A DNA stretch of 64,000 bases. It comes from a virus (taxonomy: Duplodnaviria > Heunggongvirae > Uroviricota > Caudoviricetes). The notes below the pieces were generated by a model. The model was not told the DNA's origin. It worked only from the letters and a program-made list of their open reading frames with translations, and did no database searches. The stretch is from IMG/VR virus record IMGVR_UViG_2925939204_000001. One strand, written 5' to 3'. The translations under genes were made by a program, and so were the position numbers. Below are positions 7,831 to 63,482 of this stretch, in pieces (the first letter of the stretch is position 1; each line of letters begins with the position of its first letter).

Positions 7831-7872
7831 CATTTGTGTTAGATAATTAATATGTATTTTCTAACACAAATG
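7831..7872. promoter_or_regulatory. operator-like 13-bp perfect inverted repeat CATTTGTGTTAGA-N16-TCTAACACAAATG
   Basis: Arms 7831-7843 and 7860-7872; AT-rich spacer TAATTAATATGTATTT; 8 nt upstream of rdgC start. Confidence 0.6.
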
Positions 7873-7879
7873 GTGAGAC

Positions 7880-8785
7880 ATGAGATCAGTCGCTTTCAAA
7901 AATATCTTCATCTATCGTCTTTCACGCGAAGTTAGCTGGGATACTGCAGAAGTAAATGCAGCCCTTAGCAAGTTTGTGTTTACCCCATGCGGTTCTCAGG
8001 ATATGGCTAAAGCTGGTTGGACCTCCGTTCTTGGTGACAACCTCACCCATGAATACCAGGGTTTTCTTCTGATACAGCATAAACGAGAGGAAAAAATCCT
8101 ACCTTCTCAAGTGCTCAAAGAAGAGTTACAGAAAAAAATCCTGACACTTGAAGAAGAGCAAGACAGAAAGCTGAAGAAGACCGAAAAAGATTCGCTGAAG
8201 GATGAAGTGCTTCACTCTCTTCTTCCTCGTGCTTTCACGAGAAAATCACTCGCCAAAATCCTGATCGACCGCAGCAACCATCTGGTATTCGTTGAGGCAA
8301 GCAGCGCCAAAAAGGCAGAGGACCAGCTGGCTTTATTGCGAAAATCGCTCGGCAGCCTGCCTGTCATTCCATTCACACCACGCGAACCGCTGGAAATTAC
8401 AATGACCGAGTGGTTTAAAAACGGCTTCCCTGCCGGATTTACAGCAGGTGAAGACGCCACATTAAAGGGTCTGCTCGATAATGGTGGTGCCGTTCGCTGC
8501 AACAAAGTTGATCTACAGTCCGACGAGATTATGTCTCACATTGAGGCGGGGAAAGTAGCTACGACCGTTGCAATTAACTGGATGGACCGCGCGTCGTTCA
8601 GAGTCAACGATGATATGAGTATCAAAGCCCTGACATTCTGTGATGATCTCTATGACCAGAACGACGATATCGACCGGGAGGATGTAGCACAACGATTTGA
8701 TGCTGATTTCGTGCTCTTTACGGGCGAATTATCTGCACTGTTTAACGCGCTGGTGGAGGCCATTGGCGGTGAAGCAGAACGTTAA
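7880..8785 (+). CDS. rdgC: recombination-associated protein RdgC
   Basis: Near-colinear match to E. coli RdgC ([51 protein letters not shown]-terminal [16 protein letters not shown]...GGEA). Confidence 0.9.
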
Positions 8786-10925
8786 CCTTCGATATGGTTC
8801 AGTTTGCAGTGGAATTGAAGCCGCGAGCATTGCCTGGGAACCGTTGGGTATGCGTCCGGCGTGGTTTGCTGAAATTGAGCCTTTTCCATCTGCCGTTCTT
8901 GCGCACCGCTGGCCTCATATCGCCAACCTTGGCGATATGACAAAACTTGCCAAAAAAGTCCTGGCTGGGGAAATCGAATCCCCTGATGTGCTCGTCGGGG
9001 GAACACCTTGTCAGGCATTCAGTATCGCGGGATTACGTGGTGGGCTTGATGATGAGCGCGGCGCGCTAACTTTGAAGTATGTGGAGCTTGCAAATGCAAT
9101 TGACGACAAACGGTCTGAGTCCTTCCTCAAACCGACAGTTATCGTCTGGGAAAATGTCCCAGGAGTCCTGTCATCGGCAGATAACGCCTTCGGATGTTTC
9201 CTTGCCGGATTGGCTGGAGAAGATGCACCATTTGAACCAGGTGATCGACCTGAATCAGGAAAAAGTAACGCGTTCTGGCGGTGGGATGGCAAAACCGGTT
9301 GCCATGCTCCAAAGTGGCCGCAGTGTGGTTGTATTTATGGACCGCAGCGAAAGGTGGCCTGGAGAATACTTGATGCCCAATACTTCGGAGTGGCACAACG
9401 ACGCCGACGCGTGTTTGTTGTCGCAAGTGCTCGAACAGACCTCGATCCCGCAACGGTACTTTTTGAGTTCGAAGGCGTGCGCCGGGATATTGCGCCGAGC
9501 AGAGGCGAGGGGAAGGAAGTTGCCGGAAATGTTGGAAATGGCATTAAAAGCGGGAGCCATTGGGATAACCCTGTAAATCCTCACCCGACACTTGCCCGAT
9601 CGCACAATACCGGCGGGACGGGTGCAAGCAACCAGGAGATTTTTTCACAGCGCGGAAGTGGGCTTGTCGGTGCTTACCGGATGGTAGCATTTGGTGAGTA
9701 TGCGGATGATGAGGCGGCTTCCACGGTCAAGGCCAGAGATTTTAAGGATGCAACCGACCTGGCTGTTTTTGACAGTGCGAACGTCGGAGTGGCAGTACGT
9801 CGCTTAACGCCTGTCGAGTGCGAACGCCTGCAGGGCTTTCCTGACGGGCACACGTTGATCCCTACGGAAAAGCGTAAAAAAGTTTCTTCAGATGAACTGG
9901 CATACCTTCGCAATCACTATCCAGATTTAAGCGAAGAAGAGGCCGCGATGCTTGCAGCTGACGGACCGCGTTACAAAGCGATCGGCAACAGCATGGCAGT
10001 TCCTGTTATGCAATGGATAGGGTGTCGCATTCTTGCGACCGTAGCGGATAAACAGCAAAAAACAATAAATACCATTACCTACACAAGAAAACTCCGGACT
10101 CCGGATGAATATGAACGCCCAATATTCAAATGGGTAGGCGGTAAATTCTCAGAGTTGCCTACAGTGCTTGAGCATCTACCACACGGCAAGCGGTTAATAG
10201 AACCATTCGTTGGTGGCGGTTCCGTATTTACGAATGCAGGATTTCGCCACAACCTGCTTAATGATATTAACGGTGACCTGATTAACTTCTATCAGACATT
10301 GCAGCGAGAGGGACATTCGCTCGTCACGCTGGCATATAGTTTTTTCAAAAATTACAACAACGCTGACGCTTACCTCGAAGTGCGCGAGGCATTTAACAGA
10401 GGAAAGTATGACCAGCTACATCATGCTGCCGCCTTTTTGTACCTTAATCGGCACTGTTTTAATGGCGTAACGCGGTACAACCAAAATGGCGAGTTCAACG
10501 TGGGGTATGGCAAATACAAAGCGCCCTACTTCCCACATGCAGAGATGGAGGCATTTTTGGCTGATGACGTACTCAAAAACACGTCCTTTGTATCAGGTGA
10601 CTTTGCTGGCGTCATCGAGGCGGCTGGTGAAGGCGATGTGATTTTTTGCGATCCGCCGTATGAACCGCTGCCGGATACAGAAGGGTTTACCAGTTATTCA
10701 GGAAATAGCTTCCGTTTCGACGAACAGAAACGGCTGGTATCTCTATTGGTGGAAGCCCACCAGCGCGGCGCTAAGGTAGTGATAACAAATAGTGGTGCGC
10801 CAAACATCCGTGAACTATATGAACGAAACGGGTTTAAAGTACATCATATGGCAGCCAGACGGTCGGTGTCCTGCAAGGCGTCAACACGTGTAGTTGCTAA
10901 CGATATAATTGCAATAATGAAGTAA
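8697..10925 (+). CDS. dmt: bifunctional DNA methyltransferase: N-terminal C5-cytosine MTase fused to C-terminal Dam-like N6-adenine MTase (P1 Dmt-like)
   Basis: C5 motifs [23 protein letters not shown] (PCQ), VWENVPG (ENV); Dam-like KWVGGK and FCDPPYEP (DPPY). Start uncertain: in-frame GTG at 8769 or TTG 8763 more likely than 8697/8700, which overlap rdgC by ~86 nt. Confidence 0.85.
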
Positions 10926-10957
10926 AAAACGCCGCAGTAGCGGCGTTTACTTTTTTA
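10926..10957. terminator. bidirectional rho-independent terminator (AACGCCGC-AGTA-GCGGCGTT flanked by A- and T-runs)
   Basis: Perfect 8-bp stem with TTTTTT after and AAAAA before; sits between convergent dmt and glnS. Confidence 0.7.
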
Positions 10958-10973
10958 TGTGGCGAAATACCTA

Positions 10974-12635
10974 TTAACCTAACTTCGCCCAGGTATCACG
11001 CAGCCCAACGGTGCGGTTAAATACCGGTTTTTCCGCCGTAGAATGGCGGCTGTCGAGGCAGAAATAACCTTCACGCTCAAACTGGAATGCTTTACCCGCT
11101 ACCGCTTCTTTCAGCGACGGTTCAGCAAAACCCTGTTTGATCACCAGCGATTCCGGGTTAATCACCGACAGGAAATCATCCGCAGCACCTGGGTTCGGCA
11201 CGCTGAACAGACGATCGTACAGGCGGATTTCAACCGGCAGCGCATGTGCCGCGCTCACCCAGTGAATAACGCCTTTCACTTTACGACCATCTGCCGGATC
11301 TTTGCTTAAGGTGTCGGCGTCATAAGTACAGAAGATGGTGGTGATATTGCCTTCGGCATCTTTCTCCACGCGTTCAGCCTTAATGACGTAAGCATTACGC
11401 AGACGCACTTCTTTACCCAGCACCAGACGTTTGTACTGCTTGTTAGCTTCTTCGCGGAAATCGGCGCGGTCGATCCAAATCTCACCGCTAAACGGCACCT
11501 GACGGCTACCCATTTCCGGTTTGTTTGGATGGTTCGGCATGGTGACCATTTCGCCTTCGCCCTGGTAGTTTTCGATAACCAGTTTCACCGGATCGATAAC
11601 CGCCATTGCGCGCGGCGCATTTTCGTTGAGATCTTCACGGATGCAGGATTCCAGCGACGCCATCTCAATGGTGTTGTCCTGCTTGGTCACGCCGATGCGT
11701 TTGCAGAACTCACGAATAGAAGCCGCAGTGTAACCACGACGACGCAGACCGGAAATGGTCGGCATACGCGGGTCATCCCAGCCTTCAACGTGCTTGTCGG
11801 TCACCAGCAGGTTCAGCTTACGCTTGGACATCACAGTGTATTCCAGATTCAGGCGCGAAAATTCGTACTGGCGCGGGTGAACAGGAATGGTGATGTTGTC
11901 CAGTACCCAGTCATACAGACGACGGTTGTCCTGGAACTCAAGCGTACACAGAGAGTGCGTAATACCTTCCAGCGCATCGCTGATGCAGTGGGTGAAGTCG
12001 TACATCGGGTAGATGCACCACTTGTTGCCAGTCTGGTGATGTTCAGCAAACTTAATGCGGTACAGCACCGGGTCGCGCATCACGATAAACGGCGAAGCCA
12101 TGTCGATTTTCGCACGCAGGCAGGCTTTACCTTCTTCAAAACCACCGGCACGCATTTTTTCGAACAGCGCCAGGTTCTCTTCAACGCTGCGGTCGCGGTA
12201 CGGGCTGTTTTTACCCGGCTGCGTCAGGGTGCCGCGGTATTCGCGGATCTGTTCCGGCGTCAGTTCGTCAACATACGCCAGGCCTTTGTTGATCAGTTCA
12301 ACAGCATAGGCATGGAGTTTGTCAAAATAATCGGAGGAGTAACGGATGTTGCCAGACCAGTGAAAACCTAACCATTCAACGTCGTTTTTAATCGACTCGA
12401 CGTACTCGATATCTTCTTTTACCGGGTTAGTGTCGTCGAAACGCAGGTTGCACTGGCCTTTATAGTCCTGGGCGATCCCGAAGTTCAGGCAGATAGATTT
12501 CGCATGACCAATATGCAGATAGCCATTCGGTTCCGGCGGGAAACGGGTATGTACTGTGGTGTGCTTACCACTGGCCAGATCTTCATCGATGATCTGACGA
12601 ATAAAGTTAGTCGGGCGGGCTTCTGCCTCACTCAT
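10974..12635 (-). CDS. glnS: glutaminyl-tRNA synthetase (host-like, full length 553 aa)
   Basis: Essentially colinear with E. coli GlnRS from [20 protein letters not shown], incl. class I HIGH motif (PNGYLHIGH) and VMSKR (KMSKS-type) motif. Confidence 0.95.
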
Positions 12636-12802
12636 TGTGGATTCCTCAAAGCGTAAACAACGTATAACAGCGTATGATCTTATAAGCCGAATAGGCTGAC
12701 AACCACTAGTTGATTAGAAATTACTTTCTATCGTTATTTCAATAATGAGCTTTTTCATGAAGCCCACTTTTGCGCATAAGTAAATTAATGACAAATGGTA
12801 CA

Positions 12803-12868
12803 CAATTGGAACCAAAAAGGATGTAAAGGTGCACCAAATTAGTGGTGTATTGGTGCACCTTTGGTTCA
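12803..12868. repeat. palindromic element AAAGGTGCACCAA-N12-TTGGTGCACCTTT with flanking TTGGAACC/GGTTCAA arms
   Basis: Perfect 13-bp inverted repeat (12825-12837 / 12850-12862) just downstream of the parA/RHH operon; candidate centromere or operator. Confidence 0.4.
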
Positions 12869-14457: not shown

Positions 14458-14463
14458 ACCTCG

Positions 14464-17466: not shown

Positions 17467-17493
17467 GCTTCACAAAATCTATATAGCTATTTT

Positions 17494-17505
17494 ATGTTAG
17501 AAAAA
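17494..17505 (+). promoter_or_regulatory. operator-like motif ATGTTAGAAAAA
   Basis: Member of dispersed TGTGTTAGAAAA family; ~55 bp upstream of the locus-A promoter. Confidence 0.4.
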
Positions 17506-17557
17506 TAATTTGAATTTTCGAACATAAACAATAAAATAAATCATCAAAAATTTGATG

Positions 17558-17586
17558 TTGATCTTCCATGTTTTCAGGCTTATATT
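17558..17586 (+). promoter_or_regulatory. sigma70-type promoter TTGATC-N17-TATATT of immunity locus A
   Basis: Near-consensus -35/-10 with 17-nt spacer; identical promoter at 51207-51235. Confidence 0.6.
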
Positions 17587-17592
17587 CACGCC

Positions 17593-17833
17593 GTTGCAGC
17601 AAATTCTGCGACCGGGTTTAGCAGCCTGAATGTACATGCGGACAACCGCAGATATCCGATATTGCGGTATTTTTGTGTCCGTAAAACCATGTTACGCCCG
17701 AATTATGGTGGGGCGTGATGGGGAGGCTTCGGCCTGCTGGTTTCATGTACGCCAGTCTGCTAACCCCGTCACGTCCTGCCACCCGTTTAGCAGCGGGTAG
17801 CAGGTTGTTAAACCTGTACATGAGGCCGTAACT
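17593..17833 (+). ncRNA. c4-like antisense RNA / leader region of immI-like locus A
   Basis: Sites a1/b1 (17617-17638), complementary b'/a' (17744-17763) and a2/b2 (17786-17822) overlapping the SD of the next ORF; all six sites co-vary in paralogue B. Confidence 0.5.
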
Positions 17834-18049
17834 ATGGTTAATGCCAATCCTTGCGCACGCCCGGAATTTATCTGGCGCTTTTATTCCTGCACAAAACACA
17901 CCTACATCAGCGTAATGGCAGCTACTGAGGCTGAAGCGCGTTCATTTCTTCCTACAGATCCATGCATTTTTGCCGCTCGCTTTAAACTCGATGCTCTGGA
18001 CGTTTTGACCTACTGGAACCGCCCAATGAACTGCGTGGAGGTGCATTAA
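17834..18049 (+). CDS. Icd-like small protein (71 aa)
   Basis: SD overlapped by b2 site; N-terminus MVNANPCARPEFIWRF conserved with paralogue at 51483; stop overlaps ant start. Confidence 0.5.
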   Translation: MVNANPCARPEFIWRFYSCTKHTYISVMAATEAEARSFLPTDPCIFAARFKLDALDVLTYWNRPMNCVEVH

Positions 18050-19047
18050 TGGACGCAGTAACTATCAATAACAAACCATTCCCGACTCTCGAATATAAAA
18101 ATCAGCGTGTAGTGACCTTTGAGATGATTGATGAGGTGCACGAACGTGTTGATGGGGCAGCCAGGGGAACATTTAAGCGAAACAGAAGTCGTTTCATTGA
18201 AGGGGTGGATACTTATGTTATTGATTATTCTGAAAAGGGCTTTTTAAGCCCATTTGGAATTGATGTCCCCCCGCGCGGTTTGCGCGTGTTCACTGAGTCC
18301 GGCTATCTGATGATTGTTAAGTCATTCAATGACGATCTGGCCTGGCAAGTGCAACGTGAGCTGGTAAACAGCTATTTTCGTATTAAGCAATTAATACCGG
18401 AGCACTCACCGCTAAAATCAAAAGCCGAAATCCTGGCCGAAATGGCGCAAATGCATCTTGAGCATGAACGCCGGATCAACGCCGTAAATGCCCAGGTAGC
18501 CGAGGTATCAGCACAAGTATCGATGGTCGCTGAAACACTCGAGCAAATCAAGAAAGGCAATATTCCGGAAGGCTACATTGGCTACCGCCAGCTGGCGGCG
18601 AAATGTGGCCTGACTGAAGCAAAATGTCGCAACCTGGTCAACGCTTACCGGATTCCCACCGATACGCATGAGTTTTTAACTCCCGATGGTTTGCTTGCGC
18701 GACGCTCCATTGTGGCCCTGGCCCCCTTCCGGAAAGCCTTTAAGCAGGTGATGTCGGAGGCAGAACCACGCAATAAACGCTGGTATCATCCAAAGATGGG
18801 GATGTTTCAGGCAATCCACCATCCTGTGCCTGAAAGCCCAAAGGATAATCTGTCACTACATACCGTCAGAGAGAAGATCAGGACTGGATACGCAACAGTG
18901 TGTCGTCGTTCTTCCTGGCCTGAAGGTATATGGGTGTGGCCCGAAGGTGGATCACGAAAGCACTGGCGCACTATCCGGGACGGGAAAATCCATGCTATTG
19001 ATTTAGCGCCAGAGGATATTGTTGCTACGGACTGGATTGTTAGTTAA
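18049..19047 (+). CDS. antirepressor (Ant)-like protein with C-terminal DUF2829-like segment (332 aa)
   Basis: N-terminal Bro-N/ORF6N-like region; central block KKGNIPEGYIGYRQLAAKCGLTEAKCRNLVNAYRIPTDTHEFLTP shared with 51707 paralogue; C-terminus ATVCRRSSW...LAPEDIVATDWIVS. Confidence 0.6.
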   Translation: MDAVTINNKPFPTLEYKNQRVVTFEMIDEVHERVDGAARGTFKRNRSRFIEGVDTYVIDYSEKGFLSPFGIDVPPRGLRVFTESGYLMIVKSFNDDLAWQVQRELVNSYFRIKQLIPEHSPLKSKAEILAEMAQMHLEHERRINAVNAQVAEVSAQVSMVAETLEQIKKGNIPEGYIGYRQLAAKCGLTEAKCRNLVNAYRIPTDTHEFLTPDGLLARRSIVALAPFRKAFKQVMSEAEPRNKRWYHPKMGMFQAIHHPVPESPKDNLSLHTVREKIRTGYATVCRRSSWPEGIWVWPEGGSRKHWRTIRDGKIHAIDLAPEDIVATDWIVS

Positions 19048-19082: not shown

Positions 19083-19487
19083 CTAAAAATCTGTTCGCTG
19101 TCGCCATGCGTTTTTTAACTCAGGAATATCCGCCATTTCAATTAACTTGCGAAGTCCAGCACTGACTTTCCCATTGCCAACCATAGCAAGCCAATCTCTT
19201 ACTGCTTTCGGCATGTAGAGCGTTGCAGTTACCGGCTCTTCAACCCTGGCAGGACATCCGCATACAGGCCATTTAACTGATTCCATAACTTCGGATGCCG
19301 GGGTGAGGGCGGGGACATTGAGTATATCTCTACCAGAAAACTGGATAACGATCCGTTCAGCGAGCGAGAGTATCTCACTTTCGGCAAGAATTGATGCCAA
19401 CTGCGCCTCAACAAGAAAGCGACTTGTTGTGTTCAGAGAGTGGCTCTTAGCGCCATTTTTATACGAAACAAAGATTCGATACGCCAT
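19083..19487 (-). CDS. hypothetical small regulator candidate (134 aa)
   Basis: Operator-like motif lies 12-25 nt upstream of its start; contains KWPVCGCP cysteine pair. Confidence 0.5.
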   Translation of the reverse strand: MAYRIFVSYKNGAKSHSLNTTSRFLVEAQLASILAESEILSLAERIVIQFSGRDILNVPALTPASEVMESVKWPVCGCPARVEEPVTATLYMPKAVRDWLAMVGNGKVSAGLRKLIEMADIPELKNAWRQRTDF

Positions 19488-19500
19488 AACTCTAATGATT

Positions 19501-19512
19501 TGTGTTAGAAAA
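19501..19512 (+). promoter_or_regulatory. operator-like motif TGTGTTAGAAAA
   Basis: In divergent intergenic region between 19487 gene and capsid gene; adjacent to AAATCACA element at 19521. Confidence 0.4.
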
Positions 19513-19645: not shown

Positions 19646-21343
19646 GTGAATAAAAACATTCAGCCAGCTCGTGATCGCGAGCGCGAGATTATGAATCGGG
19701 CGGCAAGCGTCATGGCTATGACCGTCGATCCGACCACCGATGCAGCAGGCAACATGATTGCTGACCAGGCAGTAATGATGGAAAACCTGGATAAAGCAAT
19801 CCAGAAAGTGCCTATGTTTGAAGGCGTAAATCCAGAGGTCGCTCGTCAGATCACTGGTGGGTGGGCTATGTCTCTGCATGAGTATAAACGTCAACATGGT
19901 CATTACCCGGCAAGTGACATCCTGGCGAACGCACACATGGCTCTTGAGCGCCTGATGACTGAATGTGCCAGTGATACCCATGAAGGCACGGGTAAGGCAA
20001 TGTTTGAGTCTGTCGCGCAATCAATGCGTAGCTCTGACGGCGTAATGAAAGTTGCTCAATATGCTGCTCTAATTCTGCCTGCCTCTCTGGGCGCTGCTAC
20101 CAGTGATGCCTGTACTTTTGTTCCTTGTGATCGTGACGAGTCAAATATTTATGAACTGGTCAACGTAGCAGGCACAAAATTCGGCACCTTCAAACAAGGT
20201 GACGAACTGAATATGCAGTCAGCTGGTGTTTATTCTCAAATGAAGCGCCTGTATACCCTTTCCACTAAAGGGGATGGCAGCACCAAAACCTTCCAGTTCG
20301 ACATCCAAAATTTTGAGGGACAATCCTGCCCGCTTCGCGCTGGTTATAACAAACTGCTGATCAACCGCAAACCGTCCAAAGTTGACGACGGCGATGGCAA
20401 CCTTTATTTCAATGCTAAAGACAGCAAAGGTAATGCTTTCTCAGCGACTGCCAAAGTTGCCTATGACACTGGTGTCATTGACATTACATTTACCCAGGCT
20501 CCGCCAGTAGGTACTGAAATTGCTGTTCAGGTCGAAATTAACATCGAGCGCAATCCAAGCCTGATTCCGGTGATCAACCAGGCTATGCGTAAGTACGAAG
20601 TTCGTCCGTCCCAGTACGTACTTGCTTCCGAACACACGGTAATGTCCGCATCCGATTTAAGCCGTGAGCACGGCCTTGAATTAGCGGCACTTCAGTTCTC
20701 CGCGATGCGTAACTGGATCTCCCATGAAACCGACATCATGCGTCTGCGCACCCTGGTATTCCATACCGTTTATGGTCGTGAATTTGATGTGGCTCTGCCG
20801 GAAGCTCAAAACTATGAGTCCTGGGTCGGCCTCCTGCGTCACGCAGTAAACGCTCTGTCTCAAGAAATGGCAAATCGTACCCTGACAACGGGTATTCGTG
20901 GCGGCTTTGCTGGTAGTGACGCCGCGAACTTCCTGCGCTCTCTGCCTCCACAGCACTTCCAGATCGCACCAGGTTACGTTCAGTCGCCGTATGTACAGTA
21001 CATCGGCACCCTGTTTGGCACGATTCGTATTTACGAAGTGCCGCAACCTGTCTGTGAGCAATTCCTGGCACAGGGATATGACTTCGGGCTGGATGACATC
21101 TTCTTCTATGGGCGTGGCGAAGGCATCGGTAAAGCCGGTCTGATTGCTGGTGATGCAGTCCCAGCAATCCCTTACGTTCACGAAACCAATCCGTCTCTCG
21201 TTAACCGTACCACTCTCTGGGGCAGTGCCATCAACGAAGTACATCCTCGCAACGGTGAAAACTACTTCACCCGCCTGCGTCTGACTCGTGCCAAAGAAGG
21301 TGCTATCGACATGCTGACAGGCAAGGTTAACGAAAAAAAGTGA
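19646..21343 (+). CDS. major head (capsid) protein candidate (565 aa, GTG start)
   Basis: Size and position (followed by Ig-like ORF, terminator, sheath gene) fit a P1-like head-sheath-tube block; ends with slippery A_AAA_AAG before the stop. Confidence 0.5.
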   Translation: MNKNIQPARDREREIMNRAASVMAMTVDPTTDAAGNMIADQAVMMENLDKAIQKVPMFEGVNPEVARQITGGWAMSLHEYKRQHGHYPASDILANAHMALERLMTECASDTHEGTGKAMFESVAQSMRSSDGVMKVAQYAALILPASLGAATSDACTFVPCDRDESNIYELVNVAGTKFGTFKQGDELNMQSAGVYSQMKRLYTLSTKGDGSTKTFQFDIQNFEGQSCPLRAGYNKLLINRKPSKVDDGDGNLYFNAKDSKGNAFSATAKVAYDTGVIDITFTQAPPVGTEIAVQVEINIERNPSLIPVINQAMRKYEVRPSQYVLASEHTVMSASDLSREHGLELAALQFSAMRNWISHETDIMRLRTLVFHTVYGREFDVALPEAQNYESWVGLLRHAVNALSQEMANRTLTTGIRGGFAGSDAANFLRSLPPQHFQIAPGYVQSPYVQYIGTLFGTIRIYEVPQPVCEQFLAQGYDFGLDDIFFYGRGEGIGKAGLIAGDAVPAIPYVHETNPSLVNRTTLWGSAINEVHPRNGENYFTRLRLTRAKEGAIDMLTGKVNEKK

Positions 21344-26836: not shown

Positions 26837-27132
26837 TTGAGGGCATTTTTTACATCATCAATCCATCAGCAATGAAGGCATTCTTTACATATTTCAATAA
26901 TATCAATCAGTTAACACAGTGAATGATAATAAAAAAGCGCAATAAGAATGCACGATACGCACGATATTGGTTGAGGGCGATTTTTACATAATCCTTACAT
27001 ATCAATATGTTATATAAAAACACAACTTGCTAATAACGAGATACATGCAATTAAGATGTAAAAATTGCCCTCAATTGCCGATCGTTAAGGGCAAATTCTA
27101 CACCTTGAGAGGGGTGTAAAAATTGCCCTTAA
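26837..27132. repeat. incA-like iteron cluster downstream of repA (mixed orientation)
   Basis: TTGAGGGCATTTTTTACATC (26837), TTGAGGGCGATTTTTACATAATCC (26971), inverted copies at 27055 and 27112, partial at 27085. Confidence 0.7.
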
Positions 27133-27884
27133 GACTGCTGATAGGTAAATTTTATCCTGGTAACTTTGCCGCCTTCCGTCACCTCTGAGAAGACTATTTT
27201 CATTTTTGTATTTTTTTCAATCTCTGCTACAGCCTTCGTTAAAAAACTTCTCTTAAATTCGGCATACCGCTGATAGCTTTTTGGTAACCCATAACGCTCC
27301 CGCATCCATTCGACGCCAAGTATGGCAAAGCCGCTTCCATCATCCTTCCTGTACTGGCATAAGGACTCATAAAGCCGCATAGAATAAGGATTTGTAAGGC
27401 GAGATACTTCGGTAAAATTCAGCCTTGTGAATCTCTTATCAAGCAGAGTAAAAAACGGCATGAGATATGGATTAAGATGAATAATGTAAGTCCCGCGCCG
27501 TGGTGAATAGGCATCCTTAATCATCCAGGGATAAGACTCATAACTGTCTTCTGATTCGGTCGATTCATCAGGGTTATATATCGTAACTTTCTTCTCGCTA
27601 AGACCTGAAATGGCCTTACGAATATCCTTGCTGGCTTCAGCAGAGGGCAAATTATACATCTCTGCATATTCGTTGACCGTCAACTCACAGGCACCTGAAC
27701 CAAGAACGCCATCCTTAGAAGCATAGCGAAGTCTTCCCACCACAATAAACAACAGTCGCTTTTGGTCGCGAGTCAGGTGATAAGCAGCCTCCGTGATCTC
27801 ATTGGCTTGTGCCAGACTACGACTAATAGGTGTCGCTGACTCAATCAGGCTGACGGCTTTTGCTGTTAATTCCGCTCTGTTCAT
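27129..27884 (-). CDS. repA: iteron-binding plasmid replication initiator RepA
   Basis: Flanked on both sides by iteron arrays; start set at internal ATG (MNRAELTAK...) because the track start at 27917 would overlap the first origin iteron. Confidence 0.8.
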   Translation of the reverse strand: MNRAELTAKAVSLIESATPISRSLAQANEITEAAYHLTRDQKRLLFIVVGRLRYASKDGVLGSGACELTVNEYAEMYNLPSAEASKDIRKAISGLSEKKVTIYNPDESTESEDSYESYPWMIKDAYSPRRGTYIIHLNPYLMPFFTLLDKRFTRLNFTEVSRLTNPYSMRLYESLCQYRKDDGSGFAILGVEWMRERYGLPKSYQRYAEFKRSFLTKAVAEIEKNTKMKIVFSEVTEGGKVTRIKFTYQQS

Positions 27885-27906
27885 AACCCTGTGTGATCCT
27901 TCAAAT

Positions 27907-28026
27907 GGTGAGGGCAATTTTTACACCACTTTGAGGGCAATTACTACACCTTTTGAGGGCAAATCTTACACCTTCTGAGGGCAAATCTTACACCGATCGT
28001 ATTTAATTGAGGGCAAATCTTACACC
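27907..28026. repeat. origin iterons: five direct repeats of TGAGGGCAA(A/T)TCTTACACC at 22-23 bp spacing
   Basis: Copies start 27909, 27932, 27954, 27976, 28008; followed by A-tract repeats, DnaA-box-like CTGTGGATATG and inverted iteron at 28149-28167. Confidence 0.8.
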
Positions 28027-49906: not shown

Positions 49907-49924
49907 TCGCCTCGTTAAGTTAAA

Positions 49925-49934
49925 TTTCTAACAT
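49925..49934 (-). promoter_or_regulatory. operator-like motif (ATGTTAGAAA on minus strand)
   Basis: TTTCTAACAT next to near-palindrome AGTGTAT-TTAT-ATACACT. Confidence 0.35.
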
Positions 49935-50019
49935 AGTGTATTTATATACACTGTTGATCCTGGTGGATGGGATCGAGTAGGATCGCGGTCACTGCTCCGG
50001 TAGCGACTGCCAAAAAAGC

Positions 50020-50046
50020 AAAAGCCGCTGAGAAGCGGCTTTTTGG
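50020..50046 (+). terminator. rho-independent terminator (AAGCCGCT-GAGA-AGCGGCTT + TTTT)
   Basis: 8-bp stem then TTTTGGG; followed by inverted repeat GTATAAATC-N10-GATTTATAC. Confidence 0.6.
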
Positions 50047-50106: not shown

Positions 50107-51069
50107 GTGAGTATTTTAAATTCAGTTTCAGTAACTTTCAACACTTCTGAGTATAAAAACAACACTGAATACCACAAAAAAATCAAAGGTCATCAGTTGA
50201 GTTTTTTTGCTCGTCATAGCGGTCTTCTTTCCCCTTCACATAGCGCCATTATTGCCGAGTTCGCCAACCTGGCAGGGGCTACCGATGAATACATGATCCG
50301 TCGCTCATATGCTGATATGTCCGAGATTACAGGACGCAGTATTTCTACTGTGCGCCGGGCATTTGCTGAAGCGACGAAGTGCGGAATGCTTGTTAAGCAA
50401 CATCAGGTAGCGAATAACAATGCCCAGGTGTGTAACGTATATCGGTTTACGACACAATTTCTCCACTTCATTCATGTAGCAATGGAGATAGGGGGTAAGC
50501 AGGGCATCAAATTTGCCAACGCCACAAAACTGGTTAAGCAGTTGATTTCAAAGGTTCGTTATTTTTTTGAAACTGGGAACCCCCTGTTCAAATTGAACAA
50601 GTCCCCCCATGTTCAAAATGAACAGCCAATAGAAAATAAGAGTCACTCTATAGCCAAAAGAAGAGAAAGATCATGCGCGGTTCAGCCAAAGGCTTCACCA
50701 GCAGATAGTTCTCAAGCGGATAATGGGGGACTGGATAAAAAACCAGTAATCAGGGAAGAACATACCAACCACTGCCTGGCGGCGGCAAAAGCGAGAGCTG
50801 CAAAGCGTCGTTCAGACGAGGGTCACGCAAAACGGCAGGCTCTGTATCGTACCGCTGAAAAGCTGGCAAAAAAATTTGCATGGATACGTAGTGCAGCTAC
50901 CGCAGTGAATAAGCCTAAACAATCCAGTGCCCTGGATTTCTCAATGGATTATTCTGGCTCCCAGGGGTGTGCAACCATTGGTGAAGCCTTTGACCTGATG
51001 AAACAGCGTGGCTATCGGTCTGAATTTGACCGTGAGGATTGGTCAATCCCGGCTGGCTTTAGGGGATGA
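50107..51069 (+). CDS. DNA-binding protein candidate, possibly lytic-replicon initiator-like (320 aa, GTG start)
   Basis: Predicted HTH-like segment (MSEITGRSISTVRRAFAEATKCGMLV); Lys/Arg-rich C-terminus; RepL-like assignment is inference. Confidence 0.45.
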   Translation: MSILNSVSVTFNTSEYKNNTEYHKKIKGHQLSFFARHSGLLSPSHSAIIAEFANLAGATDEYMIRRSYADMSEITGRSISTVRRAFAEATKCGMLVKQHQVANNNAQVCNVYRFTTQFLHFIHVAMEIGGKQGIKFANATKLVKQLISKVRYFFETGNPLFKLNKSPHVQNEQPIENKSHSIAKRRERSCAVQPKASPADSSQADNGGLDKKPVIREEHTNHCLAAAKARAAKRRSDEGHAKRQALYRTAEKLAKKFAWIRSAATAVNKPKQSSALDFSMDYSGSQGCATIGEAFDLMKQRGYRSEFDREDWSIPAGFRG

Positions 51070-51122
51070 CCTGTGCGTCTACAAAACATCCCAATGATCG
51101 GAAAATGCTCGCTCGATAATTT

Positions 51123-51134
51123 GTGTTAGAAAAT
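51123..51134 (+). promoter_or_regulatory. operator-like motif TGTGTTAGAAAA with partial inverted partner TTTCTAA
   Basis: ~70 bp upstream of locus-B promoter. Confidence 0.4.
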
Positions 51135-51206
51135 TAATTTGCTGTTTCTAAATCGGAATGTATGATCTGCATCATCGACTGAAGTCATCCATTGCTGAAA
51201 TTTTTA

Positions 51207-51235
51207 GTTGATCTTCCATGTTTTCAGGCTTATAT
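51207..51235 (+). promoter_or_regulatory. sigma70-type promoter TTGATC-N17-TATATT of immunity locus B
   Basis: Identical to locus A promoter. Confidence 0.6.
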
Positions 51236-51241
51236 TCATGC

Positions 51242-51482
51242 CGTCGTAGCAAATTCTGCGACCAGGTTTGACAGCCTGAATGTTAGTGCGGACAACCGCA
51301 GATTTCCGATATTGCGGTATTTTTGTGTCCGTAAACCGCGTTACGCCCGAATTATGGTGGGGCGTGATGGGGAGGCTTCGGCCTGCTGGTTTCACTAACG
51401 CCAGTCTGTCAACCCTGTCACGTCCTGCCACCTGTTTGACAGCGGGTAGCAGGTTGTTAAACCTGTTAGTGAGGCCGTAACT
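51242..51482 (+). ncRNA. c4-like antisense RNA / leader region of immI-like locus B
   Basis: Sites a1/b1 (51266-51287), b'/a' (51393-51411), a2/b2 (51434-51470) with compensatory differences from locus A. Confidence 0.5.
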
Positions 51483-51707
51483 ATGGTTAATGCCAATCCT
51501 TGCTCACGTCCAGAATTCATCTGGCGTTTCCACTCCCTGCAAAAACACTGCGATCACTTCGCAATTGCCGCAACCGAAAAAGAAGCCCGTTCTCTGATCC
51601 CTGATCAGTATGGTGTTCTTACTGGTCGTTTCTCTACTTCCCCACAACCAAACACTAATCCCTGGTATCGCAATATTACCAATCCCGGAATTGCGGAGGC
51701 ACACTGA
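51483..51707 (+). CDS. Icd-like small protein (74 aa)
   Basis: N-terminus MVNANPCSRPEFIWRF paralogous to 17834 ORF; stop overlaps next start. Confidence 0.5.
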   Translation: MVNANPCSRPEFIWRFHSLQKHCDHFAIAATEKEARSLIPDQYGVLTGRFSTSPQPNTNPWYRNITNPGIAEAH

Positions 51708-52414
51708 TGGAAATCTGCATTCTTGAAAAGCCATCAATGACCAGCATTGAGATCGCTGAGCTGGTGGGAAGTCGCCCTGATAACGTTAAACGCACTATTG
51801 AACGCTTGAGTAAATCAGGTGTTATTCCACTTCCTCCAATGGAGGTTTCCGAAAATATCAATAACTTAGGATTTAAAGTTAAAAATTCACACTACGTCTT
51901 CGAAGGCGAGCAAGGCAAGCGTGACAGTATCATTGTCGTTGCGCAGCTTTCTCCCGAATTTACCGCCCGGCTGGTGGACCGCTGGCGCGAACTGGAAGAA
52001 CAAGCACGCCAGCCGTTGACCGAAATAGAGATGATCGCCGCAATGGCTGCAAATGCAGTTCAGCAGCAAAAGCGGCTTCATGTTGTTGAGTCAAAGGTTA
52101 GCCAGGTGGTAGAAACCGTTGAGCAAATCAAGAAAGGCAATATGCCGGAAGGCTACATTGGCTACCGCCAGCTGGCGGCGAAATGTGGCCTGACTGAAGC
52201 CAAATGCCGTAACCTTGTCAACGCTTACCGGATTCCCACCGATACGCATGAGTTTTTAACTCCAGAGGGGGTATTGTCGCGTCGTTCCATCGTGGCCTTA
52301 TCTCCCTTCATGAATGCTTTTAACCGGATGATGTCGGAGGCTGAACACCGAGGAAAACGCTGGTATCACCCCAAAATGGGGCAATTCCAGGTGATCGGTT
52401 GGGGAGGTGAGTGA
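51707..52414 (+). CDS. antirepressor-like protein (235 aa)
   Basis: N-terminal HTH-like SIEIAELVGSRPDNVKRTIERL; shares KKGNMPEGYIGYRQLAAKCGLTEAKCRNLVNAYRIPTDTHEFLTP block with 18049 gene. Confidence 0.55.
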   Translation: MEICILEKPSMTSIEIAELVGSRPDNVKRTIERLSKSGVIPLPPMEVSENINNLGFKVKNSHYVFEGEQGKRDSIIVVAQLSPEFTARLVDRWRELEEQARQPLTEIEMIAAMAANAVQQQKRLHVVESKVSQVVETVEQIKKGNMPEGYIGYRQLAAKCGLTEAKCRNLVNAYRIPTDTHEFLTPEGVLSRRSIVALSPFMNAFNRMMSEAEHRGKRWYHPKMGQFQVIGWGGE

Positions 52415-60116: not shown

Positions 60117-60152
60117 CAGATAAGGAGCGGCCCCAACTGGGGCCGAATTTGA

Positions 60153-60587
60153 ATGACGACATTAATTGACACTGTAAAACAGACGGAATCCTACCTTGAG
60201 GACATTTTGCCGCAGGCGCTCAATGGCAGGAGTGAAGAGGCGTTTCTGGATGCATATCTGAAAGGCATGGTGGAAAGGCTGAAACGAGATCCACAGCTTT
60301 ATCACCTTTATGGGCCGTGGTGGCCTGCGCTTAAAACGTTATTGCTGGAGCGCGGCGACATATCATTTGGACAAGTTGTAGATAGTGATGTGGCAGAGAT
60401 CTACAAAATGAGTCGCCCGGCGCTTACGGTTTTGGCTGGGCATCTGTATTCGAGCGATCGCCTGGAAAATGACGCGGTATACAATCCTGTTCATGCTCTG
60501 GAAGTCGCACCTTATGCCGATGATACAGAGCCATACGTGTACACAAGTTACGACGAGTCTATAGAGAAATATCGAATTATGGGGTAG
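60153..60587 (+). CDS. acidic hypothetical protein (144 aa)
   Basis: ORF directly after darB; D/E-rich. Confidence 0.5.
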   Translation: MTTLIDTVKQTESYLEDILPQALNGRSEEAFLDAYLKGMVERLKRDPQLYHLYGPWWPALKTLLLERGDISFGQVVDSDVAEIYKMSRPALTVLAGHLYSSDRLENDAVYNPVHALEVAPYADDTEPYVYTSYDESIEKYRIMG

Positions 60588-60589
60588 CC

Positions 60590-60850
60590 ATGCGAAAGAA
60601 TCGTAGGTTTACGGTCGAAGACCTAAAGGAATATTCCATATCGAAGGGGTATATCCTTGAGTTCCACCGATACAAGAAGGTTTTTACGCTGCGAAAAGCA
60701 GAAAACCCTGCGAACTGGAGCTGGATATACTTTCCTCACACCGATGATAAGTTGGTAGAACTTGTTGATGATTTAACCTATGAAGGTTGGTTGATCGCAA
60801 TCGACAAGACAATCAAAGAATTATCCGAACAGGATAAAATAACCCTTTAA
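60590..60850 (+). CDS. hypothetical protein (86 aa)
   Basis: 3-nt spacing after upstream gene. Confidence 0.5.
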   Translation: MRKNRRFTVEDLKEYSISKGYILEFHRYKKVFTLRKAENPANWSWIYFPHTDDKLVELVDDLTYEGWLIAIDKTIKELSEQDKITL

Positions 60851-60854
60851 AAAT

Positions 60855-60894
60855 AACAGGTTGGGTAAATGCCATGCGATTTACCCAACCTGTT
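60855..60894. other. perfect 16-bp stem hairpin AACAGGTTGGGTAAAT-N8-ATTTACCCAACCTGTT
   Basis: Directly after stop of 60590 gene; no T-run on plus strand, T-rich on minus. Confidence 0.5.
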
Positions 60895-60986
60895 GATTAA
60901 GGTCACTCTTTACTCTAAAAGCAAATCCGACCTGTTGCATATAGACCATCCTTGAGTAGTATCTCTCTTGTTTTACAAATCTAACG

Positions 60987-61481
60987 TTGTTGTTATTATT
61001 TCGCATATTTACTATCAATGTGTGTGTTAGAAAAATAGCGCGAAAGAGAAGGCGTCGCAGTGAATATTCTGAAACATCCCCACATGCCGCAGCTCTTAGA
61101 GAACTGGAGAAAAACCCAGATCTAATCAAAAGGAACCATGAGCATTACGAGCAGGTTCGCGTCCTGGACTGGATGTATCGCAATATGCGTTATGTGTATG
61201 AGCATACTCACGCCACTCCAAACGGTGGCCTGCGAGGCATAAGGACGGCAATAAAAATGGTGGCAGAGGGCCAAAAGAAGGGATATCCCGATCTTTCTAT
61301 AGACCTTGCTTGTGGGGGATACCACGGAATGCGCATTGAGATGAAACATGGGAGAAATCGCCTGACTCCCGAACAACTCGTCTGGATGACTCGCCTCACA
61401 GAAGCCGGTTACTACTGCTTTGAGGCGCGCAGTGCCGCTGAAGCCATAAAAGCTATCACGGAGTATGTTTGTCTTGATTAA
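60987..61481 (+). CDS. VRR-NUC domain nuclease (start uncertain)
   Basis: EQVRVLDWMYRN...HATPNGGLRG...GYPDLSIDLACGGYHGMRIEMKHGRNRLTPEQLVWM fits VRR-NUC (PD-(D/E)xK) pattern; only TTG 60987 or GTG 61020 in frame upstream, no SD, operator-like motif overlaps the 5' end. Confidence 0.55.
   Translation: MLLLFRIFTINVCVRKIARKRRRRSEYSETSPHAAALRELEKNPDLIKRNHEHYEQVRVLDWMYRNMRYVYEHTHATPNGGLRGIRTAIKMVAEGQKKGYPDLSIDLACGGYHGMRIEMKHGRNRLTPEQLVWMTRLTEAGYYCFEARSAAEAIKAITEYVCLD
61023..61035 (+). promoter_or_regulatory. operator-like motif TGTGTTAGAAAAA
   Basis: With partial inverted partner TCTAAC at 60981. Confidence 0.4.
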
Positions 61482-61495
61482 ACGGAGAAATCGTT

Positions 61496-61696
61496 TTGCG
61501 TTTACTTAACGTGGCAGAACTTATCCCTGCAGGAACTAATGCTATCGCTCGTCGTCGCTCATGGCAGCAGGCTCTATGTATTGAGATCTCGAAACGTATC
61601 AATGGAAGTTTTGAAGCTCGCAATATTGTTACTGGCGATAAGGTTCACATAACCCCGGAAAGTGCAAGCGCTGATGATTGGGAGTTTGTACATTGA
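61496..61696 (+). CDS. DUF2829-like small protein (66 aa; Tad2-like candidate)
   Basis: ...AIARRRSWQQ...ITPESASADDWEFVH. Confidence 0.45.
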   Translation: MRLLNVAELIPAGTNAIARRRSWQQALCIEISKRINGSFEARNIVTGDKVHITPESASADDWEFVH

Positions 61697-61992
61697 GCAA
61701 AAAATATTATGTGAGTCTGGCGTTCGCTGACGATGCGGGGAGGACGCGGAGTATCACGTTGAGCACACCGGTTAAGGCTGTGACAGCACCGTTAATCCGT
61801 GAAGCTCTCAGAGAGCTGGAATTGGGGGAAAACTCGGCACTGTTGTCGGTTAGTTGGTTCGGGAAAATGTCAGAGAAACAATACGTGGATGGAGTTACCC
61901 CAATAACAGTAATGAGGCTACTTTCATTGCTGCAATGGGCCATCGTACCTGTATTTATCGCGTATCTTATTTATCAGGCTGCAACACAGTAA
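61678..61992 (+). CDS. small tail-anchored membrane protein (start possibly TTG 61693)
   Basis: C-terminal TM helix VMRLLSLLQWAIVPVFIAYLIYQ; GGGAG SD before TTG at 61693. Confidence 0.5.
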   Translation: MGVCTLSKKYYVSLAFADDAGRTRSITLSTPVKAVTAPLIREALRELELGENSALLSVSWFGKMSEKQYVDGVTPITVMRLLSLLQWAIVPVFIAYLIYQAATQ

Positions 61993-61999
61993 TTGCATA

Positions 62000-62030
62000 A
62001 AAACCCGCCAATTAGCGGGTTTTTTGTTTA
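62000..62030 (+). terminator. rho-independent terminator (AAACCCGC-CAATTA-GCGGGTTT + TTTTGTTT)
   Basis: Perfect 8-bp stem with T-run right after stop. Confidence 0.7.
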
Positions 62031-62066
62031 TTGCATCTTCCGATACTGTCATCAAACTAATAAAAT

Positions 62067-62077
62067 ATGTTAGAAAA
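62067..62077 (+). promoter_or_regulatory. operator-like motif ATGTTAGAAAA
   Basis: ~30 nt upstream of 62106 gene. Confidence 0.4.
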
Positions 62078-62105
62078 CTAATTTAACAAAGTAACGGGAA
62101 TAGCA

Positions 62106-63314
62106 ATGAGTCAACACACTGATACTTCTAATCTGGAAATTATCTCGACAGCAATTGAAACGCTGCGCACACAAATCGCTCTTATACAGAAACGGAATCC
62201 GGGTGATGACCTGTCAAAGCGACTGCACGAGAGTGTCATTGCCACTACAGATAACCTGGTGGCGGAAATCAACAAGCTGCTTGATGATGGGGCAGTTGAT
62301 TACAATAAGCTGGTGGATCAGTTTGAGGAATACCAACAAGCCGTTAATGATGGCTTGATCCGTTTTTCACAAGTCACAGGCGTATCAGCGACAGTTGAAA
62401 GCCTGGGTGATGCAGTTAATCAATTTGCCGCGAATATGCGTAATGAGATCGGCAATCTGGAAGCGCGTCTTGAACAGGCAAATACACTGCGTAAATCTGC
62501 CGAAGCCGATTTGAACCGTTACAAAAAAGACTATCCGCCCAGCCTGACAAAGCGGCTGGATGTTGCGGAGAAGGATAACCGCACGCTGAAAAGAGAGCGC
62601 CGGGAACTAAAAGAGCGTTTAACCAAGCTCAATCAGAAATGCATTGATTATCAAGGCGAAGGCGTCACACTGCGTAAAAAGTTGGCTACAGCGCAGAGCA
62701 TTATCGAAACATTAAAGCGAGAGTGCTCACAGCTTGGTCACGATCTGAACCGTGCTTGTGGCATGGGACAAAGACCAGAGACATTTCCACTTATGTATGA
62801 TGGAAGGGATGCCATTGCCTACATCCATGAGTATCCACACGGCCTGGTTGCGGAAACTGGGCAGCGTGGCGAAGCACTGCTGACGGCTAATTACCATCAA
62901 CAAATCAGAACCAATCGCCTGTTAACGATGGATGTGATCCCATCGGTATGGGGAACGCCGCTTTACTATCGCCTGCCGGGCTTCGAAAAGGACTGGAATA
63001 CCGACATAGACGAATGTCTCGCAGATAAAATTATGGCGTACCTGGAGACGGATTTTCCGCGCTTATATCGCCGGATTATGGACTCTAAGGATGCGCCAAT
63101 CGATGAATTAAAAATGCGTCCGGAGACGCTGGAGGCAATCAAGCAGACGGAGTTTGATACTGTATTCAGTGTGGCCTGCATTCCAAGCTGTTTCCATGAA
63201 AGCATCCCGTTCATGCAAGGAGATCGTCGTCAGGAAATCATTGACGCTTGCCGGGTATGGGCGAACGAATGGGATAAGAAGAATGGGGGTGTAGAAGATC
63301 TTTACGGGAAATAA
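62106..63314 (+). CDS. hypothetical protein with N-terminal coiled coil and C-terminal globular domain (402 aa)
   Basis: Operator-like motif in its upstream region; no motif recognised. Confidence 0.55.
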   Translation: MSQHTDTSNLEIISTAIETLRTQIALIQKRNPGDDLSKRLHESVIATTDNLVAEINKLLDDGAVDYNKLVDQFEEYQQAVNDGLIRFSQVTGVSATVESLGDAVNQFAANMRNEIGNLEARLEQANTLRKSAEADLNRYKKDYPPSLTKRLDVAEKDNRTLKRERRELKERLTKLNQKCIDYQGEGVTLRKKLATAQSIIETLKRECSQLGHDLNRACGMGQRPETFPLMYDGRDAIAYIHEYPHGLVAETGQRGEALLTANYHQQIRTNRLLTMDVIPSVWGTPLYYRLPGFEKDWNTDIDECLADKIMAYLETDFPRLYRRIMDSKDAPIDELKMRPETLEAIKQTEFDTVFSVACIPSCFHESIPFMQGDRRQEIIDACRVWANEWDKKNGGVEDLYGK

Positions 63315-63315
63315 T

Positions 63316-63350
63316 ATGTTAGAAATCTAAAATCACAATTCGAATGTATT
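63316..63350 (+). promoter_or_regulatory. operator-like motif ATGTTAGAAA adjacent to late-promoter-like AAATCACA-N7-TGTATT
   Basis: Same juxtaposition as at 19501-19528. Confidence 0.4.
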
Positions 63351-63386
63351 GATTGTGAAGGTGACTTAACATAGAATTTTCCTTGC

Positions 63387-63458
63387 TGGTGGGCGGTACC
63401 CACGTTTCGCTTGCTGGGCTTGATAGTCACTTATTGGTTATTGTTCGCCCACCAGCAT
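63387..63458. other. 12-bp inverted repeat TGCTGGTGGGCG-N48-CGCCCACCAGCA
   Basis: Perfect arms enclosing a 48-nt segment. Confidence 0.5.
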
Positions 63459-63471
63459 TTAACAAATTAAA

Positions 63472-63482
63472 GTGTTAGAAAA
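63472..63482 (+). promoter_or_regulatory. operator-like motif GTGTTAGAAAA
   Basis: Second motif copy ~155 bp after the one at 63316. Confidence 0.4.

Follow-up and report, generated by a model that had tools for sequence, protein, structure and literature searches.

A dispersed word in a D6-like plasmid prophage

The window analysed here is a stretch of 64,000 nucleotides (nt) from a tailed-phage record of IMG/VR (IMGVR_UViG_2925939204_000001), and the element under study is a short word, TRTGTTAGAAA, which is dispersed over it. Bases 7000-12000 of the window are 98.8% identical to Escherichia phage D6 and up to 99% identical to many plasmids of E. coli, Salmonella, and Shigella, and the similarity of this region to P1/P7 is confined to dmt (~83%). 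The gene order of D6 is reproduced, reversed, in the window, which carries mat, the tail genes, rdgC-dmt, glnS, genes for partition, capsid, and sheath, and repA with iterons, followed by sit, tail fibre genes, the lysis and dar genes, prt-pro, repL, icd-ant, darB, ulx, pmgM, and pmgS. By sequence comparison, the window is identified as a phage D6-like plasmid prophage (phage-plasmid), a relative of P1. Another relative, the Shigella dysenteriae plasmid NZ_CP026818 (hereafter the Shigella plasmid), is ~80% identical to the window over 50 kb. The D6 record contains a 345-amino-acid (aa) "prophage repressor, similar to P1 C1" and an lpa homologue, both beyond the part covered by the window. In agreement with the earlier note on this DNA, which had recognised no C1-like gene in the window, no C1 homologue was found when the window was searched; the c1-like gene that it had proposed to look for elsewhere on the replicon was found in D6 and in plasmid p95_MLI121, which is 99% identical.

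The degenerate form of the word, TRTGTTAGAAAW, has eight exact matches in the window (0.02 expected; eight was reached in 0 of 100 shuffles) and 11 matches when up to one mismatch is allowed (1.4 expected; 11 likewise reached in 0 of 100 shuffles). These 11 half-sites (7835+, 7857-, 17493+, 17515-, 19501+, 49924-, 51122+, 61023+, 62066+, 63315+, and 63471+) are the nine loci listed previously, each located within 1 nt of where it had been placed, plus two inverted partners, and nothing else, and the previous statement that such recurrence is not expected by chance holds. The strict 12-mer TGTGTTAGAAAA occurs four times (7857-, 19501+, 51122+, and 61023+; 0.02 expected), and the remaining copies deviate from it as TATG..., AGTG..., ...GATAA, or ...AAAT. 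Allowing two mismatches to the strict 12-mer weakens the signal (13 matches, 7.4 expected), so that the significance of the motif rests on its core. In an unbiased ranking of noncoding 10-mers, one mismatch being allowed, TGTTAGAAAA was the top word in both the window and D6, and the same ranking applied to P1 as a positive control yielded TTGCTCTAAT, the experimentally established core of the C1 operator. A 28-nt position weight matrix (PWM) was used to scan D6, P1, and relatives. Its scores were bimodal, with true sites at 19.5-34.5 bits and everything else at no more than 17 bits. The scan of complete D6, the whole-replicon check that had been proposed, gave 17 strong half-sites at 15 loci; none was found in P1, where the maximum score was 14.1 bits. 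The conserved block spans ~19 bp, with a consensus of roughly wwT-TRTGTTAGAAAA-yTAAwTT. Altogether, the motif sites are non-random, intergenic, and conserved. Those in the window are as follows.

7830..7873, unstranded: divalent (dyad) operator candidate 5' of rdgC/hrdC-dmt; P1 counterpart Odmt (Op68)
17491..17528, unstranded: divalent operator candidate at the head of the first immunity-I (immI)-like module; inverted pair 17491-17504/17515-17528, absent from the earlier note
19501..19512, plus strand: monovalent site between the divergent orf52-like gene (19083-19487, minus strand) and the major capsid gene 23 (19646-21343)
49924..49935, minus strand: monovalent site in the pro-repL gap, inverted with respect to repL (50107-51069); functional P1 counterpart OrepL/Op53
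51122..51155, plus strand: operator candidate at the head of the second immI-like module; P1 counterpart Oc4/Op51
61023..61034, plus strand: monovalent site at or just 5' of the VRR-NUC (pmgM-like) gene; P1 counterparts O26/Oppp (Op82/83), which flank pmgL-pmgM
62066..62077, plus strand: monovalent site 28 nt 5' of the pmgS-like head morphogenesis gene (62106-63314)
63315..63348, plus strand: site pair, 63315-63326 (TATGTTAGAAAT) right after the pmgS stop codon and a weak partner at 63337-63348
63471..63482, plus strand: second leader site (AGTGTTAGAAAA), present in D6, p95_MLI121, and the Shigella plasmid

When open reading frames (ORFs) of at least 60 aa were masked, leaving 8.4% of the window, nine of the 11 half-sites and seven of the nine loci lay outside any ORF. 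The claim that every copy is intergenic therefore stands for those seven loci and needs qualification for two: the site at 61023 would overlap the opening codons of the VRR-NUC ORF only with an upstream GTG or TTG start, and that at 63471 overlaps a 65-aa minus-strand ORF that has no support. In complete D6, 16 of the 17 strong half-sites lie within the 10.5% annotated as intergenic, rather than occurring equally often in coding DNA, the outcome that the earlier note had named as contrary to its proposal. The 17th lies in the 5' end of annotated pmgM, the start of which is probably mis-set in D6, because PHROG alignments of the VRR-NUC protein begin at residue 28 or later.

At seven of 16 loci the half-site has an inverted partner at a gap of exactly 10 bp (22 bp centre to centre), three of these partners being strong and four weak, and each weak partner scores at a level met at only ~1% of random positions. 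The weak partners at this gap in the window lie 3' of 51122 and 63315, and further dyads were seen in the Shigella plasmid. The perfect 13-bp inverted repeat reported at 7831-7843/7860-7872 was recovered and extends to 18-nt arms (7830-7847/7856-7873) that are 94% complementary. At lpa the dyad is poor in D6 but clean in the Shigella plasmid (AATGTTAGAAAT-N10-ATTTCTAACACT); dyad spacers vary between relatives, and half-sites are fixed. The previous description of an asymmetric site type thus needs a minor correction, as several of the sites are 34-bp dyads.

Correspondence with P1 operators and co-variation with C1

The C1 system of P1 is a textbook example of prophage control. P1 C1 acts on 22 dispersed, asymmetric operators (17 bp) and controls repL and lpa (PMC8546580). 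Comparison with the annotated P1 record, where C1 operators are given as protein_bind features, revealed that the sites of the D6 type match the positions of Oc4 (two modules), OrepL, Odmt, O26/Oppp, OpmgRa/b, Obanab, Olpa, Oref, and Op99. Outside the part shared with the window, D6 sites lie 5' of c1, 5' of lpa, on both sides of ref, and at ppp/pdcB, orf117/cre, and mat/simB. The c1-proximal site is located 18 nt from the c1 ATG in D6, p95_MLI121, pK91, and the Shigella plasmid. Since only 18 nt separate the two, the transcription start must be in or upstream of the operator, and this arrangement fits autoregulation.

The likeness to the operators of P1 and P7 (Op2...Op99) extends to several features. 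In both cases sites are scattered over a plasmid prophage of ~90 kb, are A+T-rich, span ~17-19 bp, are almost exclusively intergenic, and are present in many copies (~15 loci with 17 strong half-sites in D6, 22 operators in P1). Both sets mix monovalent and divalent sites, serve the same functions (c1, lpa, c4-icd-ant, repL, ref, hrdC-dmt, pmgM, pmgR/S, and the tRNA-tci operon), and have homologous cognate repressors (phrog_1678). A TTAGA/TCTAA-like core may also be common to them. However, the operator sequence of P1 is unlike the D6 type. The P1 operator consensus ATTGCTCTAATAAATTT had no match at up to three mismatches in the window or D6, which rules out the P1 immunity type (P1/P7 C1 specificity), whereas the same scan in P1 returned 22 matches at up to four mismatches, the annotated operators included; conversely, the PWM scan found no D6-type motif in P1. 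Moreover, annotated Obanab consists of two overlapping 17-mers, whereas the D6 type has non-overlapping half-sites with a 10-bp spacer, and D6-like elements differ from P1 in carrying an extra site at orf52/gene 23 and two immI cassettes, each with its own operator. The lambdoid CI/Cro systems are alike in having a prophage master repressor, promoter-overlapping operators, regulation of the repressor's own gene, and immunity specificity, but their operators are symmetric 17-mers clustered at two loci and bound by helix-turn-helix (HTH) dimers, whereas the D6-type sites are dispersed genome-wide and no HTH can be recognised in the repressor.

The C1 proteins of D6 and P1 are remote homologues, each aligning with phrog_1678 over its full length (E 1e-170 and 1e-140, respectively), and the D6 protein is 62 aa longer. 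By tblastn, 148 PLSDB plasmids were found to encode a C1 of the D6 type, with identities falling into bands between 100% and ~25%; a search of genome contigs with D6 C1 gave no confirmed locus. Co-variation between motif and C1 was compared over six replicons. Those with a C1 68-70% identical to that of D6 (pK91 and the Shigella plasmid, 70% in the latter) retain the D6 word; pK91 contains only a D6-like fragment within a conjugative resistance plasmid and is informative for the c1-proximal sites only. The C1 proteins of Leclercia pE1_003 and of a Citrobacter plasmid are 49% identical to each other and ~30% identical to that of D6, and no D6-type site was found in these two plasmids, where PWM scores stayed below 10 bits. 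Taken together, the two have CCTTAGAAT(CTA) at c1, lpa, ref, rdgC, in the pro/repL gap, and after pmgS, and P1 has ATTGCTCTAAT in place of the D6 word. Three motif types thus accompany three C1 clades at conserved positions. Positions that are kept while the word changes with the C1 clade are expected of the operators of heteroimmune repressors, not of a signal for host RNA polymerase. The top de novo word of the Leclercia plasmid, GAGTGATCACT, was rejected as an operator, as it derives from GATC-rich repeats near pacA.

In the Shigella plasmid the motif is present in every orthologous gap (rdgC, orf52/gene 23, pro/repL, VRR-NUC, pmgS, the two sites after pmgS, c1, ref, ppp/pdcB, and cre). Over the eight half-sites orthologous to those of the window, the 12-bp core is identical at 90 of 96 positions (94%) and the 50-bp flanks at 518 of 800 (65%), even with gapped alignment. 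This footprint indicates that, compared with its flanks, the motif is held constant by purifying selection.

Predicted repressor operators and competing explanations

The motif is very probably the operator of the D6-type C1 prophage repressor, present either as a single site or as two half-sites that form a 34-bp dyad (22 bp centre to centre), C1 being the presumed binder. The earlier note had proposed dispersed operators of a P1-C1-like repressor with distinct specificity, and this proposal, in which binding is a prediction, is supported by the positions of the sites, their co-variation with the lineage, their conservation, and the mutual absence of the motifs of the window and P1.

Under this reading, C1 would be encoded on the same replicon, a few kb past the right-hand end of the window (in D6, beside a lox-like site). 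In the lysogen, it would bind scattered sites that overlap or closely follow early and lytic promoters, controlling within the window the two c4-icd-ant immI modules, lytic replication through repL, rdgC-dmt, VRR-NUC/pmgM, pmgS, and the tRNA-tci operon, and outside the window lpa (the late-gene activator), ref, and, by autoregulation, c1 itself. Repression would proceed through promoter occlusion or a roadblock, and the blocking of RNA polymerase, above all at lpa and repL, would keep the plasmid prophage quiescent until the immI anti-repressors lifted repression. At dyad sites two C1 molecules may bind cooperatively. The dyad geometry, together with the 62 additional residues of D6 C1, hints at cooperative or dimeric binding. 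A more far-reaching scheme, which we regard as speculative and rather doubtful, is that D6-type C1, unlike the monomeric P1 C1, uses its longer C-terminal region to act as a dimer or cooperative pair on 34-bp dyads whose halves are exactly two helical turns apart, that single half-sites would then be weaker, tunable operators, and that a common TTAGA-like core with clade-specific flanks would form a recognition code across the P1, D6, Leclercia/Citrobacter, and Pantoea clades. If true, this code would apply to a repressor fold with no Pfam family or solved structure.

Several observations weigh against assigning the motif to C1. D6 C1 and P1 C1 share only 21% identity (over 240 aa, E 2e-8), no Pfam domain was detected in either protein, and D6 C1 has no solved relative. 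No homologue of the co-repressor Lxc was detected; an 86-aa ORF on the plus strand directly after ulx (60590-60850), the position of lxc/bof in P1, matches phrog_6844, whose function is unannotated, and is a candidate Lxc analogue, with no similarity to P1 Lxc in a BLASTP comparison. The site at 19501 has no counterpart in P1, which has parS there. Any other lineage-specific regulator would also co-vary with the motif, as whole genomes diverge together. Finally, the geometry of sites and promoters is mixed, with some sites overlapping a predicted -10 hexamer, one at ~+17, and one between the pro stop codon and a hairpin, inverted with respect to repL, and the promoter calls themselves are consensus matches, no commoner than in shuffles, that serve as positional hints only. 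In P1, -35 or -10 hexamers are annotated inside several operators, and by this precedent an operator that also supplies promoter hexamers would be compatible with C1 operators.

A second dispersed word, AAATCACAnAC, followed ~4-6 nt later by a -10-like hexamer, bears on one of the alternatives. It has 11 matches in the window (5.45 expected; no shuffle reached 11). The positions recorded for the word are as follows.

4569, 19576, 28214, 36050, 40591, 45711, and 47159, plus strand; 53175, minus strand: AAATCACAnAC sites
19521, plus strand: further AAATCACAnAC site

These precede gene 7, gene 23, pmgB-sit, R-S, lydA(-dar), the 45762 ORF, prt-pro, and a peptidoglycan hydrolase gene, and their locations correspond to those of P1 LPsit, LPs, LPdar, LPpro, and LP23. 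Late promoters of P1 depend on Lpa and combine a 9-bp -22 box, AAGTGACTT, with a -10 hexamer; the box in the window differs from it and serves equivalent operons. AAATCACAnAC is probably the D6-type late promoter box, recognised by a diverged Lpa. The P1 -22 box ACAAGTGACT had a single exact match at 879 on the minus strand, the other matches being noise. TRTGTTAGAAA was not found at the box positions of the late operons and was not placed as a -22 box. The two are separate regulatory words, as in P1, and copies of AAATCACAnAC adjoin the operators at 19501 and 63315.

Three other explanations of TRTGTTAGAAA were considered. If it were itself a late-promoter element read by an Lpa-type activator, like the -22 box of P1, its presence before capsid gene 23 and before the morphogenesis genes pmgS and pmgM would be accounted for, as would the AAATCACA box that directly follows the sites at 19501 and 63315, and a new late box is indeed to be expected because D6 Lpa is only 30% identical to P1 Lpa. 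However, the canonical late operons bear AAATCACAnAC without TRTGTTAGAAA, and the latter precedes c1, lpa, ref, repL, and the c4 modules of immunity, all of which serve early or lysogenic functions in P1; a role as late element is extremely improbable. The word could instead be a host sigma-70 extended -10 element, TRTGnTAGAAA, of early promoters that need no dedicated repressor. It is compatible with TRTG-n-TAnAAn, most copies face the downstream gene at 18-35 nt from start codons (c1, pmgS, VRR-NUC, and rdgC), as a -10 would, and the rdgC variant GATAAT is even a better -10 hexamer. Nevertheless, the last base of the hexamer is A and not the near-invariant T, the conserved block of ~19 bp is far longer than a -10, inverted pairs keep a precise gap of 10 bp, several copies run opposite to the gene that they precede (repL, lpa, and the orf117 operon), and the word is replaced in relatives from the same or related hosts, which share the same RNA polymerase. 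We consider this explanation unlikely and, in its exclusive form of an extended -10 only, reject it on account of the dyads, the inverted copies, and the lineage-linked replacement of the word.

The remaining possibility is that the sites are bound not by C1 but by a different phage regulator, such as a Rha/Ant-type protein or the orf52-like product encoded beside 19501. The assignment to C1 is indirect, and the replicon encodes further lineage-specific DNA-binding proteins (Rha-family and HTH matches). Such a regulator, however, would have had to come to occupy precisely the positions of the P1 C1 operators, down to the autoregulatory site 18 nt 5' of c1; no DNA-binding signature was found in the orf52-like protein, and the anti-repressors of P1 target the C1 protein, not DNA (PMC8546580). 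We therefore give little credence to a binder other than C1.

The P1-type C1 system is familiar, and publications and annotation already cover the D6 lineage with its c1 gene and two icd-ant modules, so that operators of the D6-type C1 would extend the P1 paradigm and not overturn it. The GenBank record of D6 has no annotated operator features, and no description of the motif word was found in the literature searched; the D6 genome paper was outside that search, and a prior description is possible. Plasmid prophages of the D6 type occur commonly in E. coli, Salmonella, and Shigella, and resistance genes are present on some of them. The operator word would define an immunity group and predict a C1 regulon (lpa, repL, two anti-repressor cassettes, rdgC-dmt, pmgS, and the tRNA operon), permit automatic annotation, correct some gene starts (pmgM and pmgS), and provide targets in attempts to induce or cure these prophages. 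Of greater interest are the geometry of the dyads and the clade-specific operator code: three or four operator types set against C1 clades could reveal how structurally uncharacterised repressors change specificity while ~15-20 dispersed sites co-evolve.

Individual sites and their surroundings

Upstream of rdgC, the half-site cores at 7835-7846 (+, TGTGTTAGATAA) and 7857-7868 (-, TGTGTTAGAAAA) are separated by 10 bp. A sigma-70-like promoter, TAGAAA-18-GATAAT (7818-7847), has its -10 within the left half-site, and the transcription start expected from it lies just 5' of the right half-site, with the rdgC ATG at 7880. This layout fits occlusion. Both half-sites are unchanged in the Shigella plasmid, where the spacer is altered.

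The first immI operator comprises half-sites at 17493-17504 (+, TATGTTAGAAAA) and 17515-17526 (-, TATGTTCGAAAA) and is overlapped by promoter-like matches at 17469-17498 and 17510-17537; the second combines a strong half-site at 51122-51133 (TGTGTTAGAAAA) with a weak inverted partner at 51144-51155. The modules that follow them are composed as listed.

17580-17632, c4-a1b1; 17701-17786, C4 RNA; 17834-18049, icd-like gene; 18049-19047, anti-repressor gene: first immI module
51230-51282, c4-a1b1; 51350-51435, C4 RNA; 51483-51707, icd; 51707-52414, Rha/Ant-like anti-repressor gene: second immI module

The layout of the first module is that of P1 Oc4/Op51-c4-icd-ant. Both contain, ~90-110 nt 3' of the motif, a complete c4-a1b1/C4 set, as is the case at P1 Op51, and C4-related Rfam matches (RF03163 and RF01695) that both exceed the gathering score. 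In both, a promoter-like TTGATC-17-TATATT lies downstream of the operator, comparable to the constitutive P51b of P1. The first cassette (17491-19047, with operator, a1b1, C4, icd, and ant) lies between spanin-like genes and the orf52-like gene, a placement different from that of the second icd-ant module of D6, and cassette and operator appear to move as a unit.

The site at 19501 is 13 nt from the start codon of the orf52-like gene, is conserved at 12 of 12 positions in the Shigella plasmid, and is also present in D6 and p95_MLI121. That at 49924 lies 18 nt past the pro stop codon and 171 nt before repL and is kept in the Shigella plasmid; the pro-repL gaps of the Leclercia and Citrobacter plasmids carry their own motif type, the same orientation being shown for Leclercia. 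Adjoining this operator is a palindrome, GTGTATTTATATACAC (49936-49951), conserved in the Shigella plasmid, and a G+C-rich hairpin with runs of T and A on both sides (50020-50043) lies between the operator and repL.

The VRR-NUC gene has its likely start at GTG 61060 and ends at 61481. A strong sigma-70-like sequence, TTTACA-16-TATTAT (60972-60999; 10 of 12 matches plus an upstream TG), places the 61023 site at ~+17, which would be a roadblock position. The site at 62066, preceded by a terminator-like hairpin (61999-62024), is identical at 12 of 12 positions in the Shigella plasmid, and its P1 counterpart is OpmgRa/b (Op86), annotated as "controls expression of pmgR and pmgS". The pmgS ATG has a GGGAA/GGAAC Shine-Dalgarno sequence that is kept in the Shigella plasmid. 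In D6, the annotated pmgS GTG lies 13 nt after the motif and the annotated upstream start of pmgM includes it; both starts are probably set too far upstream.

The sites at 63315 and 63471 head a leader that leaves the window toward the tRNA-tciAB operon, and a promoter-like TTGATT-17-TAGAAT lies at 63349-63377. Their D6 orthologues (9073- and 8917-) have the same direction as tRNA-Asn, tRNA-Thr, tRNA-Ser, and tciA/B, a tRNA-tci content that is that of the operon behind the divalent Obanab (Op72ab) of P1. The D6 tRNAs Ser-UGA, Thr-UGU, and Asn-GUU (MF356679.1, 7145-7850) are annotated on the plus strand in GenBank but were placed on the minus strand by ARAGORN and Rfam, and are thus co-directional with tciA/B and both operator sites after pmgS. 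No convincing ORF or Rfam family was found 3' of 63471 in the window (Rfam at a permissive threshold, 63300-64000), and the same applies to the whole ~1 kb between the last operator and the tRNA cluster (window 63483-64000 onward; D6 7851-8916). This region presumably represents an extended leader, or else an RNA that lacks annotation, of the putatively C1-controlled tRNA-tci operon; P1 carries a dicF-like region at a comparable place.

Two further features of the window were noted. A full-length glutaminyl-tRNA synthetase gene, glnS, is located at 10974-12635 on the minus strand and is annotated likewise in D6 and related plasmids. Clusters of the repeat TTGAGGGCAA lie at 26837-27132 and 27908-28016, on either side of the repA-like gene (27129-27917, minus strand), the right-hand copies having a 22-bp spacing, and look like RepA iterons (incA/incC-like).

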